NCBI GenBank assembly: GCA_977017645.1
Contig: OZ360219.1
Span: 57,598,001 to 57,662,000, forward strand
From: Torpedo marmorata
Lineage: Eukaryota
Length of the DNA: 64,000 nucleotides
Reading direction: 5' to 3'
A program made the position numbers and the translations under genes. Each line of letters starts with the position of its first letter. Within the stretch, counting starts at the first letter, position 1. Under the pieces are notes generated by a model, which saw nothing but the letters and a program-made list of their open reading frames with translations, was not told where the DNA came from and ran no database searches. Below are positions 5,946 to 64,000 of this stretch, piece by piece.

Positions 5946-6344
<399 letters not shown>

Positions 6345-12768: not shown

Positions 12769-12854
12769 TTCACCCCTCCTTTTTAGAAAGAGTCCAGCGG
12801 GGTGACGTGACCACTCTAATCACACAATACAAATATACATATAGACCCTCCTTT

Positions 12855-16655: not shown

Positions 16656-16763
16656 AAACGATTCTAGACATCGCAGCCAGTGTTCGAAGACGTTACCGGC
16701 ATCGTGGGCTAGGTGATCGAGGTCGAGGATAGCCGGCCATCAGAAGTACTTAGTCAATAAAAT

Positions 16764-17016
16764 TGATAGGCCTATCAATAACCACTCGAAGACTGTGAGA
16801 GCGAGTGAATCATAGGCTTTTATTGACTAAGAATGAAGCCGTGCTTCCTACTCGATCAGGTCCGGACTGGAGGGGGTGGCCAAGATACAGTGGCCTTTAT
16901 TCAGGTGAGGAAAGGGGAGGGATTACCTGGACACCCAAGGGAGGGGAGGGAGTAGACATCAGTCCGGCCTGTAATACCTGTACATACCACAAATACAAAC
17001 ACAGTGGTTTACCACA
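16764..17016 (-). repeat. 5' LTR of Gypsy element 1
   Basis: Direct repeat of 12516-12768; lies upstream of gag on the minus strand. Confidence 0.97.
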
Positions 17017-19360: not shown

Positions 19361-19720
<360 letters not shown>

Positions 19721-25233: not shown

Positions 25234-25491
<258 letters not shown>

Positions 25492-36941: not shown

Positions 36942-37216
36942 TCCCCAAAAGCACTACAGAAGTATTTTCACTGGAGATTTAAAAATAGTGGCTCATGAGC
37001 ATTTTCTTAAGGCAGTAATTGTTGGCCTGTTCCCCAAGAACTTTTGAAGGTGGCCATTGTCTCTGAAGCATACAGGAGTGGGGTGATCATATTCGCCCAG
37101 TGGACACAAGCTTAGTTCAGGAAAAAGGCTGCAATTTTTAACACTCTTTACTTCAGACAGCCAAAGGCTGCAATGATACAATGGAGTCAGTGGTGAATTA
37201 TATCATTGATATCTGC

Positions 37217-37629
37217 TGTAAGGGTTAAAATGACATGCAAACATATTTTTTGCAAGAAACCAGCCAGCGAATATTGTTTACAAATTATTTGAGTGTCTCC
37301 ATAGTAACAGTCTTTGAGCCAAGGTTACAGCTGGGTTTTCGACCATCTTAGAGAGATTGTTTAGTTTTGAATTTTGCTTTTGTACTGTTTAGAACCAGTG
37401 GAACATGGATACAGTCCAGATAATTCTTTGACCGTTCTTTTGAACGTATTAACATTTTATTGTCTGTTTTAAGTAAAGTTTAATTGTTTTATCAAAGTTC
37501 TTAATGCATAAACTTCTAATAAACAGTGAAAAACTCAATGCTATTTTAGAATGGACTTTTCTTTTAACGAGTCAAAACAATGGCGTCTCCATGTTGTCCA
37601 AGTGATTATAAAGAAAAATAGTCGCAATA
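37217..37629 (+). repeat. 5' LTR of BEL element
   Basis: Starts tgtaagggtt, ends gtcgcaata; aataaa at 37518-37523. Confidence 0.93.
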
Positions 37630-37855
37630 TTTAGTCCAAGAATTAGGATTATTGACTCGGTAGTCAATAAAATGGACTATTGACTCGTTAATCAATAGAA
37701 GACTATTTAGTCAAAGAATTTGGATTATTGACTCGTTAGTCAATAAAATGGACTATTGGCTCGTTAGTCAATAGAAGACTATTTAGTCAAAGAATTAGGA
37801 TTATTGACTGGTTAGTCAATAAAATGGACTATTGACTCGTTAGTCAATAGAAGAC
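37630..37855 (+). repeat. Three tandem 76-bp units, each with two hairpins, at the PBS position of the BEL element
   Basis: Units start at 37630, 37706 and 37782; each contains ttattgact-N4-agtcaataa and ctattgact-N4-agtcaatag (two units carry a single mismatch). Confidence 0.92.
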
Positions 37856-38173: not shown

Positions 38174-41100
38174 ATGAAGGTATCAGAACTTATAGAAGAA
38201 TTGCCAAGTCGGCAATTAGAGACAAATGGAAGCAAAGCGACTCTTCAAGCAAGACTGAGGGAGGATATAGATAAGAAGAAGGTTACAGTTGTTAGGGATA
38301 CAAATCCCACAGAATTACTGCAAAAACCATTAATAGAAACTGAGATCGGCCACAAGGTAGTGGCTGAAGCTATACCACAAAATGGTGGTGTGGAGGATGA
38401 GCAATGCAAAATGGAGACAGGGTCAGAGATTAAGGCGAATCTGACATACAGGATGAAATAGGACCAAATGATAGTGCGTCAAATACTTCCAGCAGGAGAA
38501 GCAAGAGGAGCTCTAGAGCAAGCTCCAGAGTTTCAAGTACTGAAACTATATGTTTAAAGATTCAAGCATACGCGACAGCTCTTAAAGTGGAAAAAGCAAT
38601 GCTTCAGTTTAAATTGGTCTTAGAAGATAAGGACGAGCGGATAAGAATGACACGGGTGAGGCGACAACAAGTAAAGGAGCTACAGGAGGTGCAGTGATGG
38701 AGAGATGAGGAGCTACAGGAGGTGCAGCGACAGAGAGAAGAGGAGGTGCAGCGACGAAGAGAAGAGGAGCAGCAGTTGGAGCAGCTAAGAATGGAGGAAG
38801 TGCAGCTAAAAAGGCAAAAGAAGCAACTGGAACTGGACAAAAAAATTGCTGCTAATGAGGCCAGGTCACAGGCACTAGAAGGCTCAGTGATATTTGATGC
38901 TCCAAGTAAATGATCAAAAGTATCAAGTTTTGAGGAAGGACTTCAAAAAAAGAAAATATTGAATACCAAAGATGAGACAGTGCTACAATCACAATACGTG
39001 CTTGGTCCTGAAGTAGAAAGGTCTAGGCATAGGGCTGAGCCAGTGAGAGAACCACAGGACGTGCTTGGTCATGGACTAGGCAGATTAAGACTTGGTGCTG
39101 AGCCAGTGCTACAATCACAATACGTGCTTGGACCTGAAGTAGACAGGTCCAGGCATAGGGCTGAGCCAGTGATAGAACCACAGGAAGTGCTTGGTCATGA
39201 ACCAGGCAGGTTAATGCACAGGGCTAAGCCAGTGCTGCAGATGTGAGATGTGCAAGATCCCGAATTAATCGGGTTGATGCAAGGAGCCAGATCTCAAACC
39301 CCAATGATGGCCGGATTGGACAGAGATGGGAGCCAAATGCCATGTTATGGAGGGTCATACCAGGCGCTCCTGGCAAGTATTAGAAATCCGGGTGAAAAAA
39401 GTAACGTATGTCTAGGCATGACAAGACAAGATGAGATAGCTGCATCATTAATGCAGTTACAGACTCTCTCTGCTCTGCCCAAGAGAGAGATTCCATTTTT
39501 TTATGGTGACCCCCTTGAATTCCAATCGTTTATAAAAAGCTTTGAATGCCGTATTAAAATTAGATGTCAAAACCAGGAGGATTGTTATATTACTTGCAGC
39601 AGTTCACGAGAGGACCACTGCAAGAGTTTGTAAAGAGTTGCCAATATATGAATCCTAATGTAGGATTCAAACAGGCTATGTGGTTACTAGAGAAGCATTT
39701 TGGCGACAAGTATAGAATTTCTACAGCTTATTTACAGAAGGCTCTTTCATGGTCGTTAATAAGACCAGAGGACACAAAAGGTTTACAAGCTTATGCCCTG
39801 TTTCTAAGAGGATGTTGCAATGTCATGACGGAGATTGGCCATCTTCGAGAGCTTGACATATCTCAGAATTTGGTGATCATTGTAAATAAATTACCCAACC
39901 GGATGAGAGAATTATGAAGAAGTCAAGTTGTTGAATTCCAAAAAAGAAACTATGTGACAGCTACTTTTAAGGATTTGGTGGAGTTCATTGAAGGGCAAGT
40001 GGACGTTGTCACAGATCCAGTGTTTGGAATTATTAAAGTTACTCAAACAGTGAGTAAAGAAGTTGAGAAGTTCAAATCGTATCCTCAACCAAAATTGAAG
40101 AAAAGTACATTTGCCACCTCTCTGACAGTGGCGGATAAAGAAATTAAGAAAAATGAAAGTTCGCCTGTTGAGAAGAAATGTTTGTTCTGTAATGAAAAGC
40201 ACAATTTGGAAAAGTGTGTACAGATGGAAAAGAAGACGCATAGTGAGAAAATCGATTTTTTGAAGGAAAATGGAGTATGTTTTGGCTGTCTGTGTAAAGG
40301 ACACATCAGCAAAAACTGCAAAAAGCGACTCAGCTGCGACATATGTAGTCAAAAACATCCTAAGATACTACATATCCTTAAGGAAAAGAAGAATATGGAA
40401 AAGGAACAAACGACAAGGAAAGAGGCAGGTGAAAACAGTGCTGAAGCCTCGGTATTGACAAGTGGTCTTACTGGGGCCGGTGCAGATAACTGCAAACTCT
40501 CAATAGTGCCTGTACAAGTTAAGGCCAAGAACGGGAATGAAACGGTACGTACACATGCATTTCTTGACCCAGGTAGCACTGCGTCATTTTGCACAGTGAA
40601 ACTTATGAAAAGGCTTAATCTTGAAGGAAGAAGGTCAAGGATTATATTGAAAACAATGGGACAAGAAAAGGTCGTTGAAACTAACATCGTTTCAGGGTTA
40701 GAGGTTGCTGGAATACACAGCGACAATTTTTGTGATCTTCCAGGCATATACACACAGAAGACTATGCCTGTGCATAAAGGAAACATCCCACATCAAAATG
40801 ATGTGGATCAGTGGTCATATCTGAGGAAGGTTTATATACCGGAAGATAGCTCTGAGATAGAGATGCTAATTGGTTCAGATGTACCAAAGGCTCTGGAACC
40901 AATAGAAGAAATACCGAGTGTGAGAGATAGACCTTACGCTATCAAAACTATGCTTGGATGGACAATCAATGGACCATTAGAAAGAAAGAATGATATTGCT
41001 CAGAAGCAGTCAACAACAAGTGTCAATATGATATCTGTTGTGAAACTCAACGAACCATTGAAACAACCATTCAAGACAGACTTTCCTGAATGCCTCGATA

Positions 41101-41183
41101 ATGACCAAAAACCTTCAAAAGAATATAAACAGTTCTTAGAAAATCTTGCTGACGAAAATAAATCAAGAGCATCTAACCAGTAA
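38174..41183 (+). pseudogene. BEL gag-protease, disrupted by stops and frameshifts
   Basis: SAP-like N-terminus, LPKREIP.F.GDPL.F motif, three Cys/His knuckles (CLFC...H....C, CFGC...GH....C, CDIC...H...LH), protease FLDPGS, T.LGWTI.GP; 60-bp coding repeats at about 38978-39240. Confidence 0.88.
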
Positions 41184-41218
41184 AGAAGAAATTGTTTTCA
41201 TCAAAAGTGGATGAAAAT

Positions 41219-44200
41219 CTTTATTCCCAAGTATTTAATTCCTTCTTTTGACCATTTAAATTGTGTAATTTCTTTACATTTACTATAATCCCCTTGCGTT
41301 AATGCCATAATTTCACTTTTATCAGAATTAATCTTATATCCAGATATTTCCCCATATTCTCTCAATAAAGCAGACAATTGTACTAAAGAAGTAATAGGTT
41401 TTGTCATATATATCAATACATCATCTGCAAATAAACTAATTTTATGCTCTTCCGTTCCAACTTTAATACCTACAATTTTAACATCTTGTCTAACTAATTC
41501 TGCCAAAGGTTCTATCACAAAAGTAAACAAAGCTGGTGACAAAGGACATCCTTGTCTAGTAGATCTAGTCAGAGGAAATCTTGAAGAAATTTGTCCATTT
41601 GTAACTACTTTAGCAGATGGTTCTTTATATATAGTTTTAATCCAATTAATAAATATAGTTCCAAAACCAAATTTCTCCAATACCTTAAATAAAAAATTCC
41701 ACTCTAATCTATCAAAAGCCTTTTCAGCATCTAACGTTAATACTAATGGTAAATCTTCCTTCTTTTTATGCACGTTAATTAAACTAATTAATCTAGCTAT
41801 ATTATCTTTTGAATATCTATTTTTAATAAAACCAGCTTGATCTACATGAATTAAGTCTGGTAGATAATTAGCCATTCTATTTGCTAAAATTTTTGCCATT
41901 ATCTTATAATCTACATTTAGCAATGAAATAGGTCTGTATGATTCTGTTTTCAACACGTCTCTATCTTTTTTAGGTATAACTGTAATTATTGCATTCGAAA
42001 ATGTATCCGGTAATGAATGAGTTTCCGTAATTTGTTTCAATACATTCATATACGGAGGTATCAATAAATCTTTAAACTCCTTATAAAATTCTGATGGAAA
42101 ACCATCTTCCCATGGAGATTTACCACTCGTTAAAGAAGTAAGAACCTCTTTAACTTCCCTCATTGAGAAAGGCGAATCCAAAAAATCTTTATTTTGAGTA
42201 TTTAATTTAGGTAATTTAATTTTAGATAAAAATCTATTAATTTTAGAGTCATCTTGATCAATCTGAGATTTATATAAATTCAAATAATAATCTTTAAATG
42301 AATCATTTATTTCTCGAGGTTTATACGTTATTTCCCTAGAATTCTTTTTTTTTTACAGCATTTATAGTTCTAGAAGTTCGATCTTTCTTTAATTGCCATG
42401 CCAACGCTTTATGTGCTCTTTCTCCTAATTCATAATATCTTTGTTTAGTTTTTTCAATTAATTTTTCCATTTTATATGTTTGTAATAAATTATAATGCAA
42501 TTTTTTTCCAACTAAGTTATTCCTTTTTTGATCTGATCTGTTTTTTTGCAAATCTTTCTCCAAATATTCAATCTCCTTATAATTTATATAATTTATATAA
42601 ATTAAATTATTTACCATTGTTTATGAAAATTAAAAAAGATTTAGAGAGTTGGAAGGATTTACCTATAACTTTAATGGGAAGGGTAAATTGTATTAAAATA
42701 AATGTTTTTCCAAGAATTCAATATCTCTTTCAATCAATTCTTTATGAAATTCCTCAAAAATTTTTTAAAGATCTAAATTCAATTATTAGGAAGTTTTTAT
42801 GGAAAGGAAAGTTGGCAAGGGTAGGTATAGAAAAATTAACTTGGAATTATGAAATGGGTGGTTTGCAACTTCCTAATTTTCAAAATTATTATAAAGTAGC
42901 TCAATTAAAATTTGTTAATCAACTTTTTGATTTAACTAAATCTTCCGCTTGGATTAGAATAGAATTAAATAATATAGGAGAAGATTCTAAAGAAGAAGTT
43001 ATTTATAAATGGAATTCTAAATTAATTTTTTGAAGAGGTGACTAGGAATGTGGATGAGGGTAGCGCGGTGGATGTTGTCTATATGGATTTCAGTAAGGCC
43101 TTCGATAAGGTACCACATGGAAGGTTAGTTAGGAAGGTGCAGTCTTTAGGTATAAATTTTGAGATAGTCAAATGGATTGAACATTGGCTGAAAGGGAGAG
43201 GCCAGAGAGTGGTAGTGGATAATTGTCTGTCAGGTTGGAGGCCGGTGACCAGTGGTGTGCCTCAGGGATCTGTATTGGGCCCATTGTTGTTCGTTATATA
43301 CATTAATGATCTAGATGATGGGGTGGTGAACTGGATTAGTAAATATGCAGACGATACTAAGACAGGTGGAATAGTGGATAATGAAGAAGGTTTTCAAGGA
43401 TTGCAGAGGGATTTGGGCTGCTTAGAAAAGTGGGCTGAAAAATGGCAAATGGAGTTTAATGCTGATAAGTATGAGGTGCTTCATTTTGGTAAGAAGAATC
43501 AGAACAGGACATACCTAGTAAATGGGAGAGCATTGATGAATACAGAAGAGCAGAAAGATTTAGGAATAACGGTGCATCGTTCCCTGAAGGTAGAAACTCA
43601 TGTGAATAGGGTGGTGAAGAAGGCTTTTAGTATGCTGGCCTTTATCAATCATTGCATAGAATATAGGAGTTGGGAAGTGATGTTGAGATTATATAAGGCG
43701 TTGGTGCAGCCTAGTTTAGAGTTCTGTGTGCAGTTCTGGTCGCCAAATTATAGGAAGGATATCAACAGAGTGGAGAGAGTGCAGAGAAGATTTACCAGAA
43801 TGTTACCTGGGTTTAAGCATCTAGAGTACAAGGAGAGATTGAGCAGATTAGGTCTTTATTCATTGGAGCGTAGAAGGTTGAGAGGGGATTTGATAGAGGT
43901 ATTTAAGATTATGAAAGGGATAGACAGAGTGGATGTGGATAGACTATTTCCGTTAAGAGTAGGAGCGATTGAAACAAGAGGACATGAGTTAAGAGTTAAG
44001 GGGCAGAGGTTTAGAGGTAACATGAGGGGGAACTTCTTTACTCAGAGAGTGGTAGCGGTGTGGAATGAGCTTCCGGGAGAAGTCGTGGCGGCAGAGTCAA
44101 TTTTATTATTTAAGAAAAAGTTGGACAGGTATATGGATGAGAAGGAAGTGGAGGGTTATGGGCAGGGTGCAGGTAGGTGGGACTAGAGAGGAGTGTTTGG

Positions 44201-45573
44201 TTCGGTGCGGACTAGAAGGGCCTAATGGCCTGTTTCCGTGCTGTAATTGTTATATGGTTATATATGGTTATATGGTTAATATCAACAAGAAGGAAAAATT
44301 CTCCTATCCTTAAACATTTGCTAGAAATATGGAACAAAACGGATAAGGAAATAGGAGGAAAAGGATCGATTTCTCCAAAGATGCCTTTATATAAAAATGA
44401 ACTTATTCCATTTACTATTAATAATCAATTATTTAAAATTTGGTTTCAAAAAGGAATGAAGAAAATAAATGACTGTTTTGAAGCTGGGAAATTTATTACT
44501 TTTCAAAGAATGAAAGATAAATTTAATATATTGGACAATACACTTTTTGCTTATTATCAAAGTAGAGCATTTTTGGTTGGGAAATTAGGTTATAGTTTGA
44601 TTTTACCAAGACAGAATGAATTAGAATTATTAGTTACTAAGGGAGATGTAAATAAATTTATTTCTCACATGTATAGATCGTTTCAGAGAAAAATTCCTAA
44701 AGTAGGAATTCATAAATCAAGATTAAATTGGGAATTAGATTTGAATGTAACAATAGATGAAAATCATTGGAAAGAATTATGTAAATTAAGTATGACGAAG
44801 GTTATTAATGTTAGATATAGATTAGTACAATACAATTTTTTTCATCAATTATATTTAACACCTAAAAAATTAAAGAAATTCAATCCGACATTATCAGGTT
44901 TATGTTTTAGATGTAATAAAGAGAAAGGTTCTTTCATACATTCTACATGGTTTTGTCCAAAAGTTTATGATTTTTGGTTGAAATTTAAAAATTTTCTAGA
45001 CAAAGTATTAAAAATTACATTTCCAATGGATCCTATGATATTTCTGTTTGGAGATATCAAAAAAGTTAGTAATAAGATGAAATTAAATATGTATCAAATA
45101 GAATTTTTGCGAATTGCTTTAGCTGTTTCAAAGAAATGTATTGCTATTACTTGGAAATCTGATGTAGATTTAAGGTTAGAAAGATGGCATGCAGAACTTC
45201 GTTCATGTATACCGCTTGAAAAAATTACTTACAATTTACGTAATAAGTATCACTTCTTTTTAAAAATTTGGAGCCCATATATGAAAGTTGTCGGTTTAAG
45301 GATCTGAAGATCTCTGGACATCGGATCTACTGGCGAACCTAACCTTCATAATAGAATTAGTTTATTGATGTATTTTTTAGATTGACATTCTCCTTACTCT
45401 ATCTTTTTCTTTCTTTTTTATTTTATTTTTATTTTATTAGATTAGTAGGGTTGGGAGGGTTAGGGAGGGGAGGGTGGGAGGGGGGGTGAAAATGTATCAC
45501 AAGTATTTTGATAATTTTATATTTTATCTTATGTATTTTGTGATTTAAAATTTTAAATAAAATATTTTTTTTA
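41219..45573 (+). mobile_element. L1 with 5' inversion (41219 to ~42580 inverted, ~42589-45573 sense), itself interrupted by a CR1
   Basis: 16-bp TSD aaaagtggatgaaaat (41203-41218, 45574-45589); minus-strand RT ends KYLGIKI and the plus strand resumes NLYKLNY. Confidence 0.93.
43027..44278 (+). mobile_element. 5'-truncated young CR1 LINE inserted in L1 ORF2
   Basis: Open 382-aa RT fragment (YADD), (ttatatgg)n tail; L1 flanks rejoin as KWNSKLI|STRRKNS. Confidence 0.95.
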
Positions 45574-45991
45574 AAAAGTGGATGAAAATGAAGTATTAGA
45601 AGATGCTGCAAATACTGCTGGTGATTATTCCTGCTAAGCTAAATCTGGGGAAGGAATGAAACAAATGTTTGGGAACAAACCTGAAAGTAGCTTTTGTAGC
45701 CCAGATGCACCAGCAAACAAGATCAATGAAGAAATCTTGCAGTATGTTTTAAAATGGGCGAACACAGAAAATTGCGCTGATGGTATAAAGGAGCATTTCA
45801 TTGACAATATGGTGCAACTGCCTTCAAAGTACAAAATGTTGAAGAAGGACTTAGAAATATTGGATATTCCAGAAAACAGTGACCCAAAGGGTTTTAACTT
45901 TGCACTTGGAAACAAAACTGATTTTCAGAAAAATGGGAACGAATCTGATGATTCTTCAGTTTTGAAAGTAACCAAGAGAGAAGTTCAGAGA

Positions 45992-46311
45992 GCAGTTGAC
46001 AAGAATGGAGAATTAATTGTAAATAGAATTCGTAAAACCAAGCGGAAGAAAAGAATAACTACTAAAGAAATGAATGCAGTTATTGAAGAAAGGGATTTAG
46101 CCTTATCAAGATGCACACAGTTGAAAGAGGAGATTCATTTTTTGAAAGAGAACAAGTCATTGTTTAATGACACAAGCCAACTGACTATGGAAAACAATCA
46201 AGAATGTACCTTGAAAACCCAATTAATAACGATGCAGAAAGAAATAAATATTACATTTCAGCAATGTAAGAAGCAAGGTGAAAAAACTCAAACATCTCGA
46301 GTATACTACAG
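45992..46311 (+). pseudogene. MIPOL1: Captured intronless MIPOL1-like fragment inside the BEL element
   Basis: KNGELIVNRIRKTK..RIT.KEMNAVIEERDLALSRC..L..E...LT.ENNQE..LK..L..MQ...QQ.KK....QT.RVYY aligns with recalled MIPOL1 (KNGAIIVDRIYKTK..RITAEEMSALIEERDAALSKC...LTAENNQERALK...QTLRVYY). Confidence 0.8.
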
Positions 46312-46683
46312 AAGGGCTGAAAGCAGAGGTACCAATGCATCAAATCAAATAACCTTTTTACTCCAAGTCAAGTTACTAACTTCTCAGAAGATAACAGGAA
46401 AATTACTTTCCTATTGAAAGAATTAAATGAAGAGAGAGAATCTAATAAAAGACTTCAAGATAAATTGTCAGAAAATGAGACTGGATTTTACAGTTGCGTT
46501 GAAGGAGTGTCGGAGGAGGAGGAGGAGCGACTGGTGACTGGAGCTTGGTGAGTTAATTGGTGATTTTAAAAGGGCGTGGAGGGCAAAGGGTTAGGTTAAG
46601 TGTTGATCAGTCGTAGTGAGAAATTGGGTATTTGTGTTAATTAGCAGTGACCTATAACAGGAGGGGAAGCTGAGGGAGCGCCC

Positions 46684-46841
46684 AGGGAGTGAGTGGCATA
46701 GGGAGTGAGTGGCATAGGGAGTGAGTGGCATAGGGAGTGAGTGGCATAGGGAAGGAGTGGCATAGGGAAGGAGTGGCATAGGGAAGGAGTGGCATAGGGA
46801 AGGAGTGGCATAGGCAAGGAGTAGCATAGGCAAGGAGTGGC
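46684..46841 (+). repeat. 16-bp minisatellite in the CR1 5' UTR
   Basis: About 10 units: agggagtgagtggcat x4, agggaaggagtggcat x4, then aggcaagg variants. Confidence 0.9.
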
Positions 46842-49015
46842 GGTAGAGTTTCGAGGCTTTGGCTGCAGAGGCTGAGAAAGAGCTTGCTTGCTCTCAGAGA
46901 GGTACGGTTTGTTAGTTTATTACTCTAACTAAATGTTTATATATATATATATATAATGGAGGCAGCTAGGGCAGTGGATCGCTCCACTTGTGGGATGTGG
47001 GAAATCTGGGACAGCTTACTTGTCCCTAATGACTACACCTGCAAAAGGTCCATCCAGCTACAGCTGCTTACAACCCGAGTTAGGGAACTGGAGCTGGAGT
47101 TGGATGAATTGCGGATCTTGAGGGAGGCAGAGCAGTGGTAGACAGGAGTTCGAGGGAGGCAGTCACCGCTAAAATTCAGGAGGCAGGCAGTGGGTGACTG
47201 TAAGGAGAGGGAAATGGAAGGTACATAGAGTGCAGAGTACCCCTGTGGTCATGTCTCCAGCACAGAAGCTGGCCCCCTGGCTCAGAAAGGAAGGGGGGAG
47301 AAGAGGAGAGCGATAGTGATAGGGGACTCATTGGTTAGAAAAGTAGATAGGTGGTTCTGTGGACGAGATCGAGGCTCCAGGATGGTATGTTGCCTCCCAG
47401 GTGCCAGGGTCAGGGATGTCTCTGATTGAGTTCATCGGATTCTAAAGGGGGAGGGTGAGCAGCCGGATGTCGTGGTCCACGTGAGGACCAATGACATACA
47501 TAGGAGTAGGGAAGAGGTCCTGAAGAGAAAATACAGGGAGTTAGGAAAGAAGTTAAAAAGCAGGACCTCAAGGGCGGTATTCTCAGGATTGCTGCCTGTG
47601 CCACGCGCCAGAGAGGGTAGTAATAAGAAGTTATGGCAAATGAATGCGTGGTTGAAGAGTGGGAAGGTCTGACCTCTATAAAAGGGACGGGCTGCACCTG
47701 AACTGGAGAGGGACCAATGGCAGGTTTGCTAGAGCTGTTGGGGTGGGTTTAAACTAGTCTGGCTGGGGGGTGGGAATCAAAATATGGGTGTGAAGATTAG
47801 GGTAGAAGGGAACCAGGGTGTTAAGGTCAAGACAGAGGAATATATAAAAAAGTCAAAAATATTGTTCAGCAAAAATAACAACAAGGACAGGCAGGTGAAA
47901 AGAGAGGGTAATTTGCAGGGCAATAGAAATACAGCAAAATCGCTGACAGATACTGGTCTAAGTGTGCTGAACTTAAATGCACGGAACATTAGAAATAAAG
48001 TAGATGACCTTGATGTGCAGCTACAGATTAAAAGTTATGACATTGTGGCCATCACTGAGACATGTCTTAATGATGGATGTGATTGGGAGCTGAATGTCCA
48101 AGGGTACACAGTGATAGGCAGGTAGGTAGAGAGGGTGGCGTGGCCCTGATGGTAAGCAATGATATTAAATCACTAGAAAGGAGGGACATAGGGTCAGATG
48201 TGGTAGAATCCTTATGGGTTGAGTTAAGAAATGGTAAGGGTAAAAGGACTCTATTAGCAGTTATATACAGGCCCCAAAACAGCAGCTGGGAAGTGGAATA
48301 TGAGTTACAGATGGAAATAGAAAAAACAGTGTCAGAAGGAAAATGTCAAAATAATTATGGGGGATTTTAACATGAAAGGAGATTGGGAGAGTCAGGAAGG
48401 TACTGGATTGCAGGAGAGAGAGTTTGTAGAATGCCTAAGGGATGGCTTTTTGGAACAGCTTGTCGATAATCCCACCAGGGGATCGGCGATTTTGGATTGG
48501 GTGATGTGTAATGAACCTGAGGTAATTAGGGAATTAAGGGTATTGGAGCCCTTAGGAAGTAGTGATCACAATATGATTGAGTTCAGTTTCAAATTTGAAA
48601 AGGGAAAGCTGAGATCAGGTGTGTCAATATTTCAGTGGAACAAAGGAAATTACAGTGGTATGAGAGAAGAACTGGCCCAGGTTGACTGGAAAAGTAAACT
48701 AGATGAAGGGACGGCAGAGCAAAATAGGATGATATTTCTACAAGAAATAAAGAAAGTGCAGGATAAATATATTCCAAGAAAAAAGAAAATTATGAATGGA
48801 AAAATTGCACAAATGTGGATTACTAGAGAGGTTAAGACTAAAATAAAAGCAAAAGATAGGGCATACAAAGAAGCAAAAACTAGTGGAAAAACAGAGGACT
48901 GGGAAACTTTTTAAAAACTTACAGAAAGAGACAAAGAAAGTCGAGATGAATTATGAAAGGAGGTTGGCAAATAATATACAAAAGGATACTGAGTTTTTTC
49001 AAATATATAAAGAGT

Positions 49016-52000
49016 GGGGGAGTGGCGTGATGGCGTAGGTTGGAGATGTGAAAACACACCTCTCCCTACAGAACTAATTAAAACCTGAAAAAAATACTTA
49101 TTTAGTTATTAAAAAAAAAGTTAAGTTGTTTATTAATGATTGAAGAATGACCACTAGAAAAACGAAGGAGCAAAAGTTAAAGAAAACAGTGTTTAAAGAA
49201 AGTATAATTCAAGAGGAAGATCGGCCTACCTTAACGATGGAGCCCCGGGATCAGGTTCCTCTCCCCCCGAGGAAGATGCAGACAAGGACGGTGAAGGTAA
49301 CTGCAGCACCAGTGCCATCCTCCCGAGGAGCTGGGGAAGATGGCGCTGGTGCTCGAAGAAAGACTAAGAAACTACAATTCCCGAAGAAGCGACTGCGCAT
49401 GCGCGAAATTGAAAGCTTATTTAAGAGGTCAAATAATAAGTTATTCAGCAAAAATTAAGAAGGAATATATTCAGGAATTGGATAATTTGGAGAAGGAGAT
49501 TGAGTTTTTGGAGAAGGATTTGCAAAAAAAGAGATCAGAAGAAAAGAGGAAAAACTTAATTGAGAAAAAAATTATATTATAACACGTTACAAACATATAA
49601 AATGGAAAAATTAATTGAAAGAACTAAGCAAAGATATTATGAATTGGGAGAAAGAGCTCATAAAGTCTTAGCCTGGCAATTAAAGAAAGAACAAACCTCT
49701 AGAACTATAATGGCTATAAAAAGGAATTCTAAGAAAATAACATAAACCGCGAGAAATAAATGATTCTTTTTTTTTATTTTTTTTTAAATATTTTATTTAA
49801 ATTTTTAAATCACACATTACATAAAATAGTTTTGCATATAATTCTTAAAAAATACATGTGATTACATTTTCTCCCCCCCACTTCCCACCCTCCCCTCCCT
49901 AACCCCTATATCCCCCTAATCTAAATTTAAAATAAAATAAAATAAAATAATAAAAGAAAAAAGAAAAAAAGGTAGAAAAATAGAATGAGGAGTTGATAAG
50001 CTTAAAAACTAATATATCTTAGAGGTTATTTCGCCAGCGGATCTGATATCCAGAGAGTTTACAATGTTAAACCCATAATCCTCATATATGGGCCCCAAAT
50101 TTTCAAAAAGAAATGATATTTATTTCGTAAATTATAAGTAATTTTTTCTAATGGTATACATGATCGTAACTCTGCATGCCATCGCTCTAAATTTAAATCA
50201 ACATCCGATTTCCAAGTAATAGCTATACATTTTTTTGAAACTGCTAATACTATACGTAAAAATTCTACTTGATACATATTTAATCTATGTCTAATACTAA
50301 ATTTTTTTATGTCTCCAAATAAAAATAACATAGGATCCATTGCAATTTCAACATTAAAAATTCTTTCTAAAAAATTCTTAACTTTCAACCAAAAATCTTG
50401 AATTTTTGGACATGACCATGTACAATGTACAAAAGATCCTATTTCAGTTTTACATCTAAAACACATATCTGATAACGCTGGATTAAATTTCTTCAATTTT
50501 TTAGGTGTCAAATACAATTGATGAAAAAAGTTATATTGTACTAATCTATATCTCACATTAATGACTTTTGTCATACTTAATTTACATAAATCTTTCCAAT
50601 GATTTTCATCTATATTAACATTCAAATCTAATTCCCATTTCAATCTAGACTTATGCACTCCTACTTTAAACATCTTTCTTTGAAACAACTTATACATTTG
50701 TGATATAAATTTATTAACATTGACTTTAGTAATTAATAATTCCAATTCATTTTGTCTTGGTACTGTTAATTCATTCCCTAATCTCTCAATCAAAAAAGCT
50801 TTAACTTGAAAATAAACTAACATTGTATTATCTAATATATTAAATTTTTCTTTTAACCTCTGGAAAGTGATAAATCTACCTGCTTCAAAACAATCTTTTA
50901 AAGTCTTAATTCCCTTTAAAAACCATAACTTAAGTAACTGATTATCCATAGAAAATGGTAAAAGCGGATTCTGATGTATTGGTGTATTTAAAGAAATTAA
51001 TCCTTTTTGACCTATCTCTTTGTCTACTTGTGACCAAATTTCCAACAAATGTTTAATAATTGGTGTATTTTTCTTTTTAAGTAATAATAATTTAGAATTC
51101 CATTTATAAATAATATCTTCTTTATGTATTTCTCCCATATTATTCAATTCTATATTAATCCAAGCAGAAGATTTATTTAAATCAAAGAATTCATTAATAA
51201 ATTTTAATTGAGCCACTTTATAATAATACTGAAAATTGGGGAGTTGTAACCCTCCCATCTCATAATTCCATGTTAATTTATCTATACTTACTCTTGCCAA
51301 CTTTCCTTTCCATAAAAATTTCCTAATAATAAATTTTAAATCTTTAAAAAATTTATTTGGAATACCATAAGGAATCGATTGAAAAAGATATTGAATTCTT
51401 GGAAAAACATTCATTTTAATACAATTTACTCTTCCCATCAAAGTTATAGGTAAATCTTTCCAAAGCTCTAAGTCCTTTTTTATTTTCATAAATAAAGGAA
51501 TATAATTTAATTTATACAAATTCTCTAATTTTGTGTCAATTTTAACTCCCAAATATTTAATACTTTCTGTGGTCCATTTAAAGTCCGTAACTTCTTTACA
51601 TCTAGTATAATCCCCTTGAGATAAAGCCAAAATCTCACTTTTATCTGAATTAATTTTATATCCTGATATCTCACCATATTCTATCAATATAGTAGCCAAT
51701 TGCTGAAGTGATGTAACAGATTTCGTCATATATATTAATACATCATCTGCAAATAGACTAATCTTATGTTCTTCCCTACCCACTTTTATTCCCATTATAT
51801 TTATATCTTCTCTATCATTTCTGCTAAAGGTTCTATTACCAAGACAAACAAAGCAGGTGACAAAGGACATCCCTGTCGTGTTGATCTTGACAACAAAAAT
51901 TTTTGCGATATTTGTCCATTTGTAACTACTTTAGCCGTAGGTTCCTTATATATAGTTTTAATCCAATTTATAAAATTATCTCCAAATCCAAATTTTTCCA

Positions 52001-55000
52001 TAACTTTAAATAAAAAATTCCACTCTACTCTATCAAATGCCTTCTCTGCATCTAATGTTACCACCAATGGTAAATCTTGTTTCTTCTTATGTATATTAAT
52101 CAAACTTATCAATCTAGCTATATTATCTTTCGATATCTATTTTTAATAAATCCAGCTTGATCCGAATGTATTAAATCTGGTAAGTACTTAGCTAATCTAT
52201 TTGCTAAAATTTTTGCCATTATTTTATAATCCACATTTAGTAATGAAATAGGCCTATAAGACTCAGTTTTCAACACATCTCTATCTTTCTTTGGTATAAC
52301 CGTAATTATAGCATTTAAAAATGTCTTCGGTAATAAATGAGTTTCAGTAACTTGATTCAATACCTCCATATATAAAGGTATCAGTAAATCTTTAAATTCT
52401 TTATAAAATTCTACTGGAAACCCATCATCCCCCGGAGATTTGCCACTTTTCAACGTCGATATTGCGTCAATAACTTCTCTCATCGTAAAAGGTAAATCCA
52501 AAGAATATTTACTTTGAACATTCAATTTAGGTAAAGTAATTCTAGATAGAAATCTATTAATCTTCATATCATCATGGTCAATCTCAGATCTATATAAACT
52601 CTGATAATATTCTTTAAAAGATTCATTTATTTCTTGTGGCTTATAAGTTATTTCTCCAGCATTTCTCTTCCTTATAGCATTAATAGTTTTAGAAACTTGT
52701 TCTTTTTTTAATTGCCATGACAAAACTTTATGTGCCTTTTCCCCTAATTCATAATATCTTTGTTTTGTTCTCGTTATCAACTTTTCAGTCTTACGTGTTT
52801 GCAATAAATTATAATGTAATTTCTTCCTTACTAAACGATTCCTCTTAAGAATAGACTTATTTCTCTGTAAATCCTTTTCCATAAACTCAATTTCCTTCTC
52901 TAGTTTTTCCTCTTCTTTCAAATAATCTTTTTTTATCTTTACTGAATAACTTATTATTAAACCTCTTAAATAAGCTTTCAAAGCTTCCCATACCATAAAT
53001 TTATCATTAACCGAATTATTATTTATTCTTAAAAATTCCTGAATTTCTCGTCTCATATATTCACAAAAGTCCTTTCTTTTCAATAAGGAGGAATCAAATC
53101 TCCAATTATATACAGTTTTTTCCTTCTCTGGAATTATACATGTCATTAATAAAGGTGAATGATCTGAAATTAATCTTGCTTTATAAGATATCTGTGTTAT
53201 TCTATCCTGAATTTGCGAAGATAATAAAAACAAATCTATCCTAGAAAAAGAATTATGTCTAAATGAATAAAATGAATAATCTTTCTCTCTCGGTTTCAAC
53301 TTTCTCCAAATATCCACCAAATTCAAATCCTCCATCAAATTAATTATCTTTTTGACTATTTTTGGTCTAGCAGATGTTTTCGAAGTTTTATCCATAATTG
53401 GATTTAAACAACAATTAAAATCTCCACCAATTAAAATATTCTCTTTAGCATCTGATAGATGTAAAAAGGCATCTTGAATAAATTGTTCATCATCAGGATT
53501 TGACACATATAAATTCATAAGAGTCCAAAATTCTGAATAAATTTGACAATATATCAAAACATATCTTCCTGCCGTATCAATCACTGTCGATTGTATCTTA
53601 AAAGGTAACTTCTTATTTACTAAAATAGCTACTCCTCTAGCCTTAGAATTAAATGACGACGCTATAACATGTCCTACCCAATCTCTTTTCAATTTTTGAT
53701 GTTCAATATCTTTCAAGTGAGTTTCTTGTAAAAAAGCTATGTCTACTTTCAACTTTTTAATATATGCCAAAGTTCGTTTAAATAAATGATTCTTTCAAGG
53801 ACTTTTATTTAAATTTATATAAATCTCAAACTGATAAAGATGATTCTAAAATTAATGAATTTTTATCCAAAATTAAGATGCCGAGGTTAAATATTCATAG
53901 TAAAGAATTTTTAGATACACCATTAACGATGAGAGAAGTTAATGAGGTTCTTAGTTCTTTAACTAGTGGAAACTCACTGGGGGAGGATGGTTTCCCATCA
54001 GAATTTTATAAGGAATTTAAGGATTTATTGATACCTCCTTATATGGAGGTGTTAAAACAAATAACGGAAACTCATTCTCTACCGGAAACTTTTTCAAATG
54101 CAATAATAACAGTTATATCTAAAAAAGATAGAGATTTGTTGAAAACAGAATCATATAGACCAATTTCGTTGCTAAATGTGGACTATAAGATAATGGCGAA
54201 AATTTTAGCAAATAGAGTGGCTAAATATTTACCAGATTTAATTCATGTAGATCAAGCAGGTTTTATTAAGAACAGATATTCAAAAGATAATATAGCCAGA
54301 TTAATTAGTTTAATAAATGTGGCGCAAAAGAGAGAGGAATTCGCGTTAGTATTAACATTAGATGCCAAAAAGGCTTTTGATAGATTAGAGTGGAATTATT
54401 TATTTAAGGTACTGGAAAAATTTGGTTTTGGAACTACATTTATTAATTGGATTAAAACTATATATAAAGAACCATCTGCTAGAGTGGTCACAAATGGACA
54501 AATTTTTTCAAAATTTTCTTTGACTAGGTCAACCAGACAAGGATGTCCTTCGTCGCCAGCATTGTTTATTTTAGCAATAGAACCTTTAGCAGAATTAATT
54601 AGACAGGATATTAAGATTGCAGGTATTAAAGTTGGTAATGAAGAGCATAAAATCAGTTTATTTGCAGATGACGTATTGATTTATATGACAAAACCTATTA
54701 CTTCTTTAATGCAATTGACTGTTTTATTGAGAGAATATGGGGAAATATCTGGTTATAAGATTAATTCTGATAAAAGTCAAATTATGGCATTAACACAAGG
54801 GGATTATAGTAAATGTAAAGAAATTACACAATTTAAGTGGTCAAAGGAAGGAATTAAATATTTGGGAATAAAGATTGATACAAAATTAACTAATCTATAT
54901 AAATTAAATTATCTATCATTATTTATGAATATTAAAAAGGATTTAGAAAGTTGGAAGGATATACCTATAACTTTAATGGGAAGGGTAAACTGTATTAAAA

Positions 55001-56610
55001 TGAATGTTTTTCAGAGAATTCAATATCTTTTTCAATTAATTCCTTATGAAATCCCTCAAAAATTCTTTAAAGATTTAAATTTAATTATTAGGAAATTCTT
55101 GTGGAAAGGAAAGTTGGCTAGAGTAGGTATGGAGAAATTAACTTGGAATTATGAAATAGGTGGTTTACAACTTCCTAATTTTCAATATTATTATAAAGCA
55201 GCCCAATTAAAATTTATTAATGAAATGTTTGATTTAGGAAAATCTTCTGCTTGGATTAGAATAGAATTAAATAATATAGGAGAAGATTTGAAAGAAGTTA
55301 TTTATAAATGGAATTCTAAATTATTATTAACAAGATGGAAAAATTCTCCTATTTTTAGACATTTGTTAGAAATATGGAATAGAGTGGATAGAGAAATAGG
55401 AGCGAAAGGGTCATTTTATCGAAAAATGCCTCTGTATCAAAATAAACTTATTCCATTTACTGTTCATAATCAATTATTTAAAATTTAGTTCCAAAAGGGA
55501 ATTAAGAAAATAAATGATTGTTTTGAAGCTAGTAAATTTATTACTTTTCAAAGAATGAAAGATAAGTTTAATGTATCAAATAATACACTTTTTGCTTATT
55601 ATCAAATTAGAGCATTTTTAGTTGAAAGGTTGGGCTATAGTTTGATTTTACCAAGACAGAGTGAATTGGAATTATTAGTTACTAATGGAGGTGTAAATAA
55701 ATTTATTTCTCAAATGTATAGATTGTTACAGAGGAAAATGCCTAAACTAGGAATTCATAAATCAAGATTAAATTGGGAATCAGATTTGAATGTAACAATA
55801 GATGAAGAACATTGGAAAGAATTATGTAAACAAAGTATGACGAAGATTATTAATGTTAGATATAGATTAGTGCAATATAATTTTTTTCATCAATTATATT
55901 TAACACCTAAAATATTAAAGAAATTTAATCTGACATTATCTGGTTTATGTTTTAGATGTAATAGAGAGGAAGGTTCTTTTGTACATTCTACATGGTTTTG
56001 TCCAAAAGTATATGATTTTTGGTTGAAAGTTAAAAAGTTTTTAGATAAAGTATTAAGAATTGCACTCCCAATGGATCCTATGATATTTTTGTTTGGAGAT
56101 ATTAAAAGAATTAGTGTTAAGATGAAATTAAATATGTATCAAATAGAATTTTTACGTATTGCTTTAGCTGTTTCTAAGAAATGCATTGCTATTACATGGA
56201 AATCTGATGTAGATTTAGGGTTAGAAAGATGGCATGCAGAACTTCGTTCAGCTATACCACTTGAAAAAATTACTTATAATTTACGTAATAAATATAATTT
56301 CTTTTTGAAAATATGGAGCCCATATATAAAAACTGTTGGTTTAAGGATTTGAAGATCTCCGGATATTGGATCTGACTGGCGAACCTGTGTTCCACAATAA
56401 AATTTGTTTATAGTTGTTCTTTTTAGAGTGACATTCTCCTTACTTTATCTTTTTCTTCTTCTTTCTTTCTTTCTTTTCGGGAGGGTTAGGGAGGGGAGGG
56501 AGGTAGGGAGGGAGGGAGGGTGGGTGAAAATGTATCACATGTAATTTGATAATTTTGCATTTTAAACTATGTACTCTGTGATTTAAAAATTTTAAATAAA
56601 ATATTTAAAA
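49016..56610 (+). mobile_element. L1 with intact 5' end and a large internal deletion, interrupted by an antisense L1
   Basis: Starts gggggagtggcgtgatggcg; putative ORF1 start at 49147; jumps to ORF2 (KAYLRGQIISY) at about 49408; TSD atatataaagagt at 49003-49015 and 56620-56632. Confidence 0.88.
49770..53779 (-). mobile_element. L1, nearly complete ORF2 (endonuclease, RT, Cys-rich domain) with two frameshifts
   Basis: LQETH, GGDFN, RID, SDH, FADD, CFRC; poly(A) at about 49770-49790; 16-bp TSD aaataaatgattcttt (49754-49769, 53780-53795). Confidence 0.95.
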
Positions 56611-58628
56611 AATATATATATATATAAAGAGTAAAAGAGAGACAAGGGTAGATATAGGACCAATTGAAAATGATGCTGGAGGAATTATAATGGGTAACCA
56701 AGAGATGGCAGAGGAACTAAATGAGTATTTTGCGTCAGTCTTCACTGAGGAAGACAATAGGAATATACCTGATATTCAGAGGATGCAGGGAATAGAATTA
56801 AGTACAGTTAGGATTACTAGGGAGATAGTGCTTGGAAAGCTGATTGGACTAAAGATAGATAAGTCTCCTGGACCGGATGAGGTGCCCCCACGGGTTCTGG
56901 CTTTGGAGATTGTGGAGGCATTGGAAATGATTTTTCAGAAATCAATAGACTCCGGCATGATTCCGGAGGATTGGAAGGTCGCAAATGTAGTTCCGCTGTT
57001 TAAGAAAGGAGGGAGGCAGAAAAAAGGAAATTAGAGGCCTATTAGTCTGACATCAGTAGTTGGTAAGATTTTGGAGTCGATCCTCAAGGACGAGGTTATG
57101 AAATACCTCGAGGTGAATGACATGATAGGTCCAAGCCAGCATGGTTTCATGAAGGGAAGATCCTGCCTGACCAACCTATTGGATTTTTTGAGGAGATATC
57201 AGGTAGGATGGACAAGGGAGAGGCTGTGGATGTTGTGTATTTGGATTTTCAAAAGGCCTTCGATAAGGTGCCGCATAAGAGGCTGCTTAATAAGATGAGA
57301 GCTCATGGAATTACAGGAAAGATATTAGATTGGGTGGAGCATTGGCTGATAGGCAGGAAGCAAAGGGTGGGAATAAAGGGATCCTGTTCTGGTTGGTTGC
57401 CGGTTACTAGTGGTGTTCCGCAAGGCTCGGTGTTGGGTCCGCTTCTTTTTACAATGTATATAGATGATTTAGATTACGGATTGAATGGTTTTGTGGCTAA
57501 GTTTGCGGATGACACCAAGATAGGTGGTGGAGTAGAAAGTGTTGAAGAAATCAAAAGGTTGCAGAGAGAAACCTGGACAGCTTAGGAGAGTGGGCAAAGA
57601 AATGGCAGATGAGATATAATGTTGAGAAATGCACGGTTGTACATTTTGGAAGAGGAAGTAACAGACAGATTATTATTTGGATGGGGAGAAAATTCAAAAT
57701 TTGGAAGTGCAAAGGGACTTGGGGGTCCTCGTGCAGGATAACCTAAAGGTTAACCACTAGGTTGGGTCGGCAGTAAAGAAAGAGAATGCTACGTTGGCAT
57801 TCATTTCAAGTGGAATAATGTATAAGAGTAAAGAGGTGTTGATGAGGCTCTATGGGGCACTGGTGAGACCTCATTTGGAGTACTGTGTGCAGTTTTGGGC
57901 CCCTTATCTTAGAAGGGATGTAATAATGTTGGAGAGAGTGCAGAGAAGATTTACCAGGATCATTCCTGGAATGCAGTGGCTAACATATGAGGAACGTTTA
58001 GCGGCTCTTGGACTGTATTCTTTGGAGTATAGAAGAATGAGAGGGGATCTCATAGGAACATTTCAAATACTGAAAGGATTGGACAGAGTAAATGGAAATA
58101 AGATGTTTCCCTTGGTGGGTGAATCCAGGACAAGAGGGCACAGTCTTAGAATTAGAGGGTACCCATTTCGAACAGAGATGAGGAGGAATTTCTTCAGCCA
58201 GAGGGTCGTGGATTTGTGGAATTCGTTGCCACATACAGCTGTGGGAGGCCTGATCTTTGGGGGATTTTAAGGAGGAGATTGATAGGTATCTGATTGGTCA
58301 GGGTATAAAGGGATATGGGGAAAAGGCCGGAAATTGGAATTAGATGTGAGAACAGTTTAGCTCGGTGGAGTTGCAGAACAGACTCGATTGGCCGAATGGC
58401 CTAGTTCTGTTCCTTTAACTTGTGATCTTTGAATTGGAAGCTGCAAAATTGGATCCAGAATTACAGGAAAAGACAATAGAAGCCAGAGTGGCTGTTGATG
58501 AGTTTGAGGAACCAATGTCGTTTGAGTCCTACCTTTTCTATAACCAACCACAGAAGAGAAAGAAAAAGATGAACAAGCCTGTTGTTGTGAAGGTTAAATA
58601 GACTCGTCAATTGGAATCAAGAGTATCA

Positions 58629-58706
58629 GATGTCACACTTGACCAACCAATGTTGGATGAAGAAGCTGCGCAAGAGGTAATAAATCGTATCCAAAGCTTC
58701 AGAAAA
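58629..58706 (+). pseudogene. Short IARS1 (isoleucyl-tRNA synthetase)-like fragment inside the BEL element
   Basis: DVTLDQPMLDEEAAQEVINRIQSFRK resembles recalled IARS1 DVTPDQSMVDEGMAREVINRIQKLRK; only 26 codons. Confidence 0.6.
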
Positions 58707-58994
58707 AGAAAAAGAGAAAAAGGCCCATCTTGTGCCCTCAAGAACGTGAATACCTTGGAAATTAAGAATCATGTTCAAGCACTGGATAAGGCCGGGGCAA
58801 ACTTGCAAGCAGATTAAGACTAAATATGGCTTTATGAACAGACCAATGACCAAATCTGTCTTTTACAAGAAGCAGAAAGCTTTCATGATTGACTTTCACT
58901 TTCTTTTGAATATTTACCCGATGTATTACTATGTTTGATTTTTTCTTTGTAATGGTAATTATTATTTTTAGATATAATAATTAGGGGCCGGTAT

Positions 58995-59407
58995 TGTAAG
59001 GGTTAAAATGACTTGCAAACATATTTTTTGCAAGAAACTAACCTGCGAATATTGTTTACAAATTCTTTGAGTGTCTCCATCGTAACAGTCTTCGAGTCAA
59101 GGTTATAGCTGGTTTTTTGACCATTTTAGAGAGATTGTTTAATTTTGAGTTTTGCTTTTGTACTATTTAGAACCAGTGGAACATGGATACAGTCCAGATA
59201 ATTCTTTGACCGTTCTTTTGAACGTATTAACGTTTTATTGTCTGTTTTAAGTATATTTTAATTGTTTTATCAAATTTCTTAACGTATAAAGTTCTAATAA
59301 ACAGTGAAAAACTCAATGCTACTTTGGAATGGACTTTTCATTTAACAAGTCAAAACAACTGCGTCTCCATGTTGTCCAAGCGATTATAAAGGAAAATAGT
59401 CGCAATA
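58995..59407 (+). repeat. 3' LTR of BEL element
   Basis: Direct repeat of 37217-37629, preceded by PPT-like ttaggggccggta. Confidence 0.93.
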
Positions 59408-59876
59408 TCTGCTTTCAGTGTAGGATGGCTCCTGAGATACCTTCCAAGATTTTCTTCTGGTCCTTGGCTGTTGGTGGTCAGTTTTGTGCAGCAGGAGCAA
59501 GCTCCTGAAGGATATTTGTCTTCTGGGTGGTTAGTATCAGATCCACTGTCACATAAACTTTAGTAAAGAAGCCAACAATATCTTGGAGCTTGACCTCCAA
59601 ATATGTGCATGCACAAGCATAATTTGAGTATTGCAACTTGATGACCTTGGCTCAGGAGTGAAGCTGACAAAGGTTGAAGAGTTTCCTATTTATCTTGCAG
59701 GCTGCCATCCCCCCAGCATGAAACCTTTTGGAGCTGAGATGTGGCAATGAGATGAGAAAAGTAGAGAGCAGTGTTAGAGCAATGAGACGATCTTGCTGGA
59801 TTCGAGACTGCACTGAGATTTGGTCAGCTGTAAACCTGCAAGTTAGAGTCCTGCCATCAGATAGCAGGTGTTGAAT

Positions 59877-63700: not shown

Positions 63701-64000
63701 GTGTGGGACCCGGACGCCATGGCCACCCTCTGGCTTACCGGTACGGTCGTTAGGCCACAGCGTTGAACAGTATCCGGGTGGATAAAGCTCTCAGTGCTTC
63801 CAGTGTCAAATAAACAAGTTATCTTGTGTCCCTCGACCAGTATGTCCATCATGGATCTTGTCAGCTGGTGGGGAACGTTCTGGTCGAGGGTGATGGATGC
63901 CAAAGTTGGGGTGAAGTCGTCTTGATCCGAGGTCTTTAAAAATGGCCGCTCCCGTGGGTTGCACGTGTCGCTGGAGGTCTCTGCACAAAATGGCGGCGCC
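60722..64000 (-). mobile_element. Gypsy LTR retrotransposon 2 (same family as element 1); 3' LTR at 60722-60963; 5' part lies beyond the window
   Basis: 242-bp LTR sharing termini with element 1, identical PPT (ttcacccctcctttt on +), open pol. Confidence 0.95.
61039..63999 (-). CDS. Gypsy Pol (protease, RT, RNase H, integrase); frame open to the window edge
   Basis: ORF 61039..63903 with LFDTGS, YLDD, ESDASD, HPG..C..C, DDE; upstream codons stay open (SSDTCNPRERPFL) to 63999. Confidence 0.95.
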   Translation of the reverse strand, partial: APPFCAETSSDTCNPRERPFLKTSDQDDFTPTLASITLDQNVPHQLTRSMMDILVEGHKITCLFDTGSTESFIHPDTVQRCGLTTVPVSQRVAMASGSHTTDIRGACVANIVVQGAEYRQFSLFVMNRLCAPVLLGLDFQSHLQSVTMRYDGPLPAITVANHQFLDSTPETTCGLSTLKISPPSLFANLTPDCRPVATKSRRYSTEDRAFIKTEVQRLQQEGIIEMSNSPWRAQVVIVKGAKNRMVVDYSQTINRFTLLDAYPLPRIAEMVNQIAQYRLFSTIDLKSAYHQLPIRREDRSYTAFEADGRLFQFLRLPFGVTNGVSVFQREMDRIVDHYKLKATFPYLDDITICGYDRQDHDNNLRKFLQAAKALNLTYNKEKCVFGTTRLAILGYVVENGVIGPDPERMRPLLELPLPANPRALKRCLGFFSYYAQWVPNYADKARPLVKSTAFPLASEARKAFDLIKGDIARATMHAVDEETPFQVESDASDFALAATLNQAGRPVAFFSRTLQGPEIRHSAVEKEAQAIVEAIRHWRHYLAGKHFTLLTDQRSVAFMFNNQQRGKIKNDKIMRWRIELSTYNYDIMYRPGKLNEPSDALSRGSCASAQVDRLHALHNDLCHPGITRLFHFVKSQNLPYSLEEVRTMISSCRVCAECKPQFYRPDKAQLIKATRPFERLSIDFKGPLPSTNRNVYFLNIIDEYSRFPFAIPCPDTSAASTIKALRQVFTLFGFPNYIHSDRGSAFMSEELRQFLLTRGIATSRTTAYNPRGNGQVERENATVWKAALLALKSRGLPVSRWQDVLPEALHSIRSLLCTATNVTPHERFFSFSRRSNTGTALPAWLTSPGPVLLRNHLRSSKYEPAVQRVQLAHANPQYAYVVFPDGREDTVSIRDLAPAGAPEEPLDGQDHSLRPLPSPSSTTSDQAPAMEPTILPSHPAPQEEPTALPSSPAPQPAPRVPPAPQPAPRVLRRSQRRAKPPDRLDL

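Follow-up and report, generated by a model that had tools for sequence, protein, structure and literature searches.

An LTR element carrying pieces of three genes

We analysed a stretch of 64,000 nucleotides (nt) from Torpedo marmorata (GCA_977017645.1, contig OZ360219.1, positions 57,598,001 to 57,662,000 of the forward strand), called the window below. It contains a long terminal repeat (LTR) element at 37217-59407 in which, after the gag-protease region, pieces of three cellular genes follow each other in the order BRCA1, MIPOL1 amino acids (aa) 241-349, MIPOL1 aa 91-166 and Elongin A. All are in sense orientation and each parent is represented only in part. The order of the two MIPOL1 pieces is reversed, and the junction between them, at 46311|46312, has, judged from its sequence, the form of a back-splice junction.

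The 5′ LTR (37217-37629) and the 3′ LTR (58995-59407) form a direct repeat of 92.8% identity (92.75%). Of 414 aligned columns 30 differ, through 19 transitions and 11 transversions, and the Kimura two-parameter (K2P) distance is 0.077, or 0.038 per copy. A 5-bp target-site duplication, TCTGC, precedes the 5′ LTR at 37212-37216 and is found again by sequence inspection at 59408-59412, directly after the 3′ LTR. All features of the element and its cargo described here lie on the + strand. Three tandem copies of 76 nt with 93-95% identity occupy 37628-37855, where the primer-binding site is expected; each copy begins with the sequence that occupies the primer-binding position directly 3′ of the 5′ LTR. 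A scan of the window for tRNA genes found none. The gag region (38174-40373) is broken and comprises a SAP domain (Pfam E 2e-8), a coiled coil, a weak match to DUF1759 (E 0.014, 15.8 bits against a cut-off of 25.4, in a broken frame) and three Cys/His knuckles at 40179, 40278 and 40335; it also holds a tandem repeat with a period of 63 nt (38973-39287). It is followed at 40449-41140 (pol end approximate) by an aspartic protease with the motif FLDPG (Asp_protease_2, E 4e-4, below the cut-off) and by the start of pol, which is cut off there. From a gag with three Cys/His knuckles followed by an aspartic protease, a feature absent from the literature passages checked, we take the element to be BEL/Pao-like (Belpaoviridae). 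Searches for relatives of the gag-protease region in viral and prokaryote collections gave 19 and 55 pattern matches, of which none was confirmed. Neither an LTR-type reverse transcriptase (RT) nor RNase H or integrase was found 3′ of the protease with Pfam in the frames scanned, and the RT matches present there belong to insertions of long interspersed nuclear elements (LINEs). The internal enzyme reading frames have been replaced by the cargo, which goes beyond mere interruption. A short purine-rich tract of putative function, noticed by inspection, precedes the 3′ LTR at 58983-58994.

The first MIPOL1 piece (45989-46311, aa 241-349; all MIPOL1 positions are those of white-shark MIPOL1, P0005) is encoded in frame +2 at 45989-46309, within an open frame of 259 codons (45638-46417). 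White-shark MIPOL1 aa 241-349 matches the window in tblastn with E 3e-34, and 61-68 of 107 residues (57-64%) are identical to those of 12 shark and skate MIPOL1 rows. A scan of 1.84 billion representatives yielded 41 matches at E<=0.001, the top two of which are named MIPOL1 (Heterodontus and Cetorhinus, E 2e-30 and 6e-28). A word-indexed search with residues 110-230 gave one match among 12 candidates, P0002, which bears PF27918 and PF27921, listed in Atlas as MIPOL1_N and MIPOL1_C. The named top matches together with this match rule out an unrelated coiled-coil protein. A Pfam scan returned no MIPOL1 match for P0001, and none for the shark MIPOL1 P0122 either, so that this blank is uninformative. 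A preliminary description of this DNA had recognised an intronless MIPOL1-like segment of about 107 codons, ending at 46311, in an LTR element with about 7% divergence by eye between its repeats. The identity, the position, the capture and the divergence all stand, with both LTRs and the target duplication now located, and the end given, 46311, coincides exactly with the inferred end of an exon. The description was incomplete, as the segment is one of four pieces from three genes: the upstream part of MIPOL1 that follows beyond 46311 and the flanking BRCA1 and Elongin A sequences had been missed.

The BRCA1 sequence is split. Its left part, 13 codons for aa ~236-249 at 41180-41218, was identified by local alignment to skate and bamboo-shark BRCA1, where 5 and 0 of 2000 shuffles, respectively, were as good; codons left of 41180 resembling BRCA1 aa 223-234 were rejected at chance level (482 of 2000 shuffles as good). 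The right part, aa ~245-387 at 45574-45988 with one stop at 45635, is matched by skate BRCA1 P0127 with 48% identity (tblastn E 1e-33), and residues 3-127 of the open frame match skate BRCA1. An interpretation of this upstream piece as a neighbour gene of MIPOL1 was therefore rejected. The second MIPOL1 piece is likewise in two parts. Part 2a, aa ~91-144 at 46312-46479 with a frameshift near 46345, has 28 of 40 residues identical over aa 105-144 (tblastn E 7e-12). Part 2b, aa 146-166 at 58431-58493, shares 14 of 21 residues with skate MIPOL1 in an alignment equalled by none of 2000 shuffles. The Elongin A piece, aa ~386-434 at 58488-58631 with one stop at 58599, was found by protein search, with a single match among 816 candidates (Narcine elongin-A, E 4e-10); a search of Atlas with this piece returned no usable match. 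Both the BRCA1/MIPOL1 and the MIPOL1/Elongin A joins are in frame, and at each join residues are common to both parents, namely Arg at the former and Val-Ala at the latter, a likeness at the level of residues only. The open frame continues past Elongin A at 58632-58817 with no Pfam match and no significant match to the three parents; it may belong to a fourth captured gene or to the remnant end of the element.

Exon structure of the MIPOL1 pieces

The exon map used here is based on isoforms of the protein in sharks and other animals and not on the host gene. According to these isoforms the first piece covers three exons, with borders after aa 282, 318 and 349: the basking shark isoform P0011 has no aa 283-318, and divergence sets in after aa 318 in Heterodontus P0168 and P0170 and after aa 282 in P0153. 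Skate P0171 and two other sequences diverge before LQDKL at aa 135, within the second piece. In a metagenome scan with the MIPOL1 alignment, one of 139 stretches was a distant homologue, L001, and its DNA has GT immediately after the codon aligned to aa 282. This marine metagenome contig holds two exons of the homologue (485-610 and 2202-2366), with the intron after the position of aa 282. In the window the corresponding junctions lie at 46111|46112 and 46216|46217 in the first piece and at about 46452|46453 in part 2a, and all three colinear exon junctions are uninterrupted by an intron. The MIPOL1 cargo thus derives from spliced RNA. This agrees with the earlier proposal of a capture as spliced RNA covering several parent exons; a match confined to one exon with flanking intron sequence, which had been named as the opposite outcome, was not what we found.

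The fourth MIPOL1 junction (46304-46321 with its surroundings) is non-colinear, with aa 349 followed directly by aa 91. Its upstream side can be placed from exon-skipping isoforms. In P0123 of basking shark and P0187 of Mustelus the next exon is skipped, which gives the reading LYY-R-LERL; the unnamed P0130 skips it too, and the unnamed P0128 stops at YYR. It follows that the exon ends two bases past the second Tyr codon, with AG. The downstream side is an exon start in front of RAE: six of nine shark species have isoform pairs that differ by one residue before or at the R of RAENRG, the mark of a tandem acceptor, and this is also the point at which alternative first exons are attached. In the window a single base separates the YY-AG end at 46311 from the RAE codons, so that an exon end meets the start of an upstream exon in phase 2. 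Under a model of a random backward jump with 8 internal borders in a frame of 448 codons, the chance of such a coincidence of exon end and exon start is 4e-5 if exact, and 0.006 if 3 nt of slack on either side and an in-frame join are allowed.

The matches to MIPOL1 are confined to aa 90-350 (aa 91-166 and 241-349), and entry and exit do not overlap; both the entry at aa 241 and the exit at aa 166 fall inside exons. A circle of these exons would comprise 780 nt, of which 558 nt, less than one turn, would have been copied. Among 161 MIPOL1 proteins that contain the YY motif the reversed junction does not occur, and among 180 MIPOL1-like proteins none has an internal duplication, with rays barely sampled in both sets. 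Exonic Mipol1/MIPOL1 circular RNAs (circRNAs) appear as table listings for mouse and human (PMC9888537, PMC8783515, PMC8176118).

Genomic setting, age and spread

The cargo is split by LINE insertions that came after the capture. The first (41219-45573, presumably L1-like), delimited by self-BLAST and by Pfam RVT_1 and zf-RVT, is inverted in its 5′ part and flanked by a target duplication of 16 nt, at 41203 and 45574. A second LINE is nested in it at 43016-44270 and is 97% identical to a copy at 9935-11187. The other insertion (46480-58430), a large LINE with further LINEs nested in it, was recognised by endonuclease and RT Pfam matches and by similarity to other copies in the window; we take it to be CR1-like. 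MIPOL1 resumes one codon later on its far side. A 16-nt tandem repeat lies near its 5′ end, at 46684-46841.

The resident host gene of the window is FAM198/GASK1, with consecutive coding exons at 5946-6344, 19361-19720 and 25234-25488 on the + strand (Pfam E 1e-30, 1e-38 and 7e-27). The element sits about 12 kb past the last of these, so that the site is not the MIPOL1 locus. An intron of FAM198/GASK1 holds a very young LTR element on the - strand (12512-17016) with 257-nt repeats of 100% identity and an open frame of 1294 codons for protease, RT, RNase H and integrase; a relative with 81% identity is found at 60722-63973.

In a tree of 20 rows, none of which was left out, the first MIPOL1 piece groups with skate MIPOL1 (support 86/85) inside the cartilaginous fishes (100/98), on a long branch of 0.38. 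Nine of 40 residues that are invariant in 12 vertebrate sequences are changed in this piece, which gives a neutral estimate of ~0.13 changes per base, compared with 0.038 since insertion. The capture is thus probably older than the insertion of the present copy, and the protein was not conserved. The 362 codons contain two stops. Some 4.6-5.2 would be expected from 0.12-0.14 changes per base, but the deficit gives no significant sign of selection for an open frame (P 0.11-0.16 at kappa 3.5). Two deletions in the first MIPOL1 piece and one in Elongin A are each of a single codon, and two frameshifts also occur. A fused open frame in an active element is possible.

The sequence is also represented in other data. 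Eleven of 17 sequencing runs listed (5 organism codes, 5 studies) contain 31-35% of 93 sampled 31-mers; this comparison leaves out two rows with a small share and four with next to no words. No run contains half or more of the words, and no RNA run is among those listed as containing them. A word share of 31-35% corresponds to a difference of 3.3-3.7%, near the decay of the present copy itself, while host exons at a difference of 10-15% would give only 0.7-4% of the words. We infer that the word shares are as expected for sister copies or orthologues, not for host exons. Two of the runs that contain the words comprise as little as 23 and 69 million letters, an indication of many copies.

Origin of the chimera

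Taken together, we consider it highly likely that the capture was mediated by the LTR element and, given such a capture, likely that the MIPOL1 template was circular. The combined explanation that we favour as reasonably probable is a capture by template switching with a MIPOL1 circRNA as one of the templates, followed by amplification. A BEL/Pao-like LTR retrotransposon of an ancestor in the ray lineage would have packaged host RNAs. The RT would then have switched templates repeatedly and replaced the RT-RNase H-integrase region with the BRCA1, MIPOL1 and Elongin A pieces in the order seen today. The MIPOL1 template would have been a circular RNA of ~780 nt comprising the exons that encode aa 90-350, of which the enzyme would have copied ~560 nt, less than one turn, across the back-splice junction. 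The chimera, which retained its LTRs and the gag-protease region, would have moved on as a non-autonomous element, and the present copy landed ~12 kb downstream of FAM198/GASK1, where it has decayed and been split by LINEs.

Several points weigh against this explanation. The exon borders and the single-copy state of the exons are deduced from protein sequences rather than from the host MIPOL1 gene or its RNA, and the sole named ray or skate MIPOL1 isoform compared lacks the RAE exon, which leaves room for a tandem duplication specific to rays. The tandem acceptor places an AG before the RAE exon, and this gives a match of 2-3 nt to the donor end on a linear mRNA. Microsimilarity at the joins between genes is visible only as the common residues named above. 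The grouping with skates, at 86/85 only, is not firm, and the divergence estimate is wide (fraction 0.10-0.35). Finally, word shares in sequencing runs alone cannot separate copies from orthologues or show common junctions.

The main rival assumes the same capture by the LTR element from a linear MIPOL1 RNA with repeated exons, produced either by trans-splicing or by a parent gene in which the exon block is duplicated in tandem. Such an RNA yields the identical junction between the exon end and the start of the upstream exon, and since less than one turn was copied, the sequence itself requires no circle; moreover, ray MIPOL1 is barely sampled. However, the proteins searched contain neither an internal duplication (0 of 180) nor the junction (0 of 161), whereas MIPOL1 circRNAs are recorded in the mammalian tables cited above. 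We regard a linear template with repeated exons as unlikely.

The pieces could also have been reversed on an ordinary MIPOL1 mRNA, by two separate switches or a single jump backwards, with the short AG/CAG match leading to the exon borders. The element clearly switched several times, and the tandem acceptor supplies the match of 2-3 nt, but the low chance of hitting both an exon end and an exon start (4e-5 to 6e-3) makes an origin of this kind improbable. The other borders of the MIPOL1 sequence, at aa 241 and aa 166, lie inside exons, as is usual for switches. It is a shade less probable still that LINE-made processed pseudogenes, or a chimeric transcript formed beforehand, were inserted into an existing LTR element. 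The element is rich in later LINE insertions, and a 2026 preprint (10.64898/2026.06.26.734816) links numbers of retrocopies to non-LTR elements in its main text. Against such insertions, the borders of the cargo show neither poly(A) nor a target duplication of their own, the signs of a LINE-made processed pseudogene; the RT, RNase H and integrase of the element are missing instead of being pushed apart; and the three genes directly adjoin one another, in sense orientation and in frame. A capture of genomic pieces at the DNA level, for which the BRCA1 and Elongin A pieces could hypothetically each be a single exon, is hardly credible, as the MIPOL1 pieces span three exon junctions without an intron and the DNA of the distant homologue L001 has an intron at the position of aa 282.

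The capture of a circRNA in template switching by an LTR element combines features that are known separately. LTR-mediated retrocopies, including a mouse ‘Super’ retrocopy of four genes and BEL-flanked cases in insects, were described by Tan et al. 2016 (PMC5131818). As in the present element, partial sense mRNA pieces replace internal reading frames between two LTRs, several parents contribute and poly(A) is lacking; these retrocopies can also move again, and it is by analogy with them that co-packaging and template switching may be assumed here. Unlike the present element, no circular or non-colinear template is mentioned there, the word ‘circular’ occurring neither in the main text nor in the 9 supplementary files searched. 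The maize element Bs1, as described in the same paper, is similar in being an LTR element with an interior of exon pieces from three cellular genes and multiple copies with common switch points; it differs in being a plant element, and that description includes no back-splice junction.

Pseudogenes derived from circRNAs, which have flanks rich in LTRs, are established for both mouse and human (Dong et al. 2016, PMC4897178), among them 33 mouse circRFWD2 copies. They share with the present sequence a non-colinear exon junction, a restriction to the exons of the circle and the lack of poly(A). In the main text of that paper the mechanism is called mysterious and LTRs enter only as an enrichment of the flanks, which a review (PMC5408686) takes as a hint of LTR mediation. 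In contrast to the cases in that main text, whose supplements may show similar anatomy, the present junction is enclosed, between pieces of two other genes, in a single element that has both LTRs, gag-protease and a target duplication. We found no report of this element, or of a back-splice junction in a multi-gene LTR chimera, in the literature searched, which leaves most subscription journals outside its coverage. Multi-gene capture by LTR elements and circRNA pseudogenes have each been described before; no report was found of the two joined in one element.

The preprint mentioned above, covering 244 vertebrate genomes, places MIPOL1 among the top five retrocopied parents of cartilaginous fishes (10.64898/2026.06.26.734816). 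Its main text, in which neither ‘circular’ nor ‘chimeric’ occurs, interprets these lists through a bias in formation together with selective filtering and ties abundance to non-LTR elements. The present copy may be one of these MIPOL1 retrocopies. Only tentatively do we extend our explanation to the proposal that a circRNA was packaged by an LTR element and copied across its back-splice junction, that its in-frame fusion with BRCA1 and Elongin A was kept open during the spread in several ray species, and that this family explains the top rank of MIPOL1.

In conclusion, an element that gave up its enzyme genes in exchange for spliced pieces of three host genes, one of them with exons joined back to front as in a circular RNA, points to how circular RNAs can enter genomes, a route that the main text of PMC4897178 leaves open. 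A junction of the back-splice type that stands between ordinary switch borders and is enclosed by both LTRs gives direct anatomical support, from outside the mammals, for copying inside LTR particles. If the MIPOL1 template was indeed circular, the element would preserve, like a fossil, an old MIPOL1 circRNA from the germline of rays. The element may also explain the rank of MIPOL1, a coiled-coil gene that has been little studied, among the retrocopied genes of cartilaginous fishes, which would then reflect one capture amplified by a transposon, and not many insertions kept by selection.
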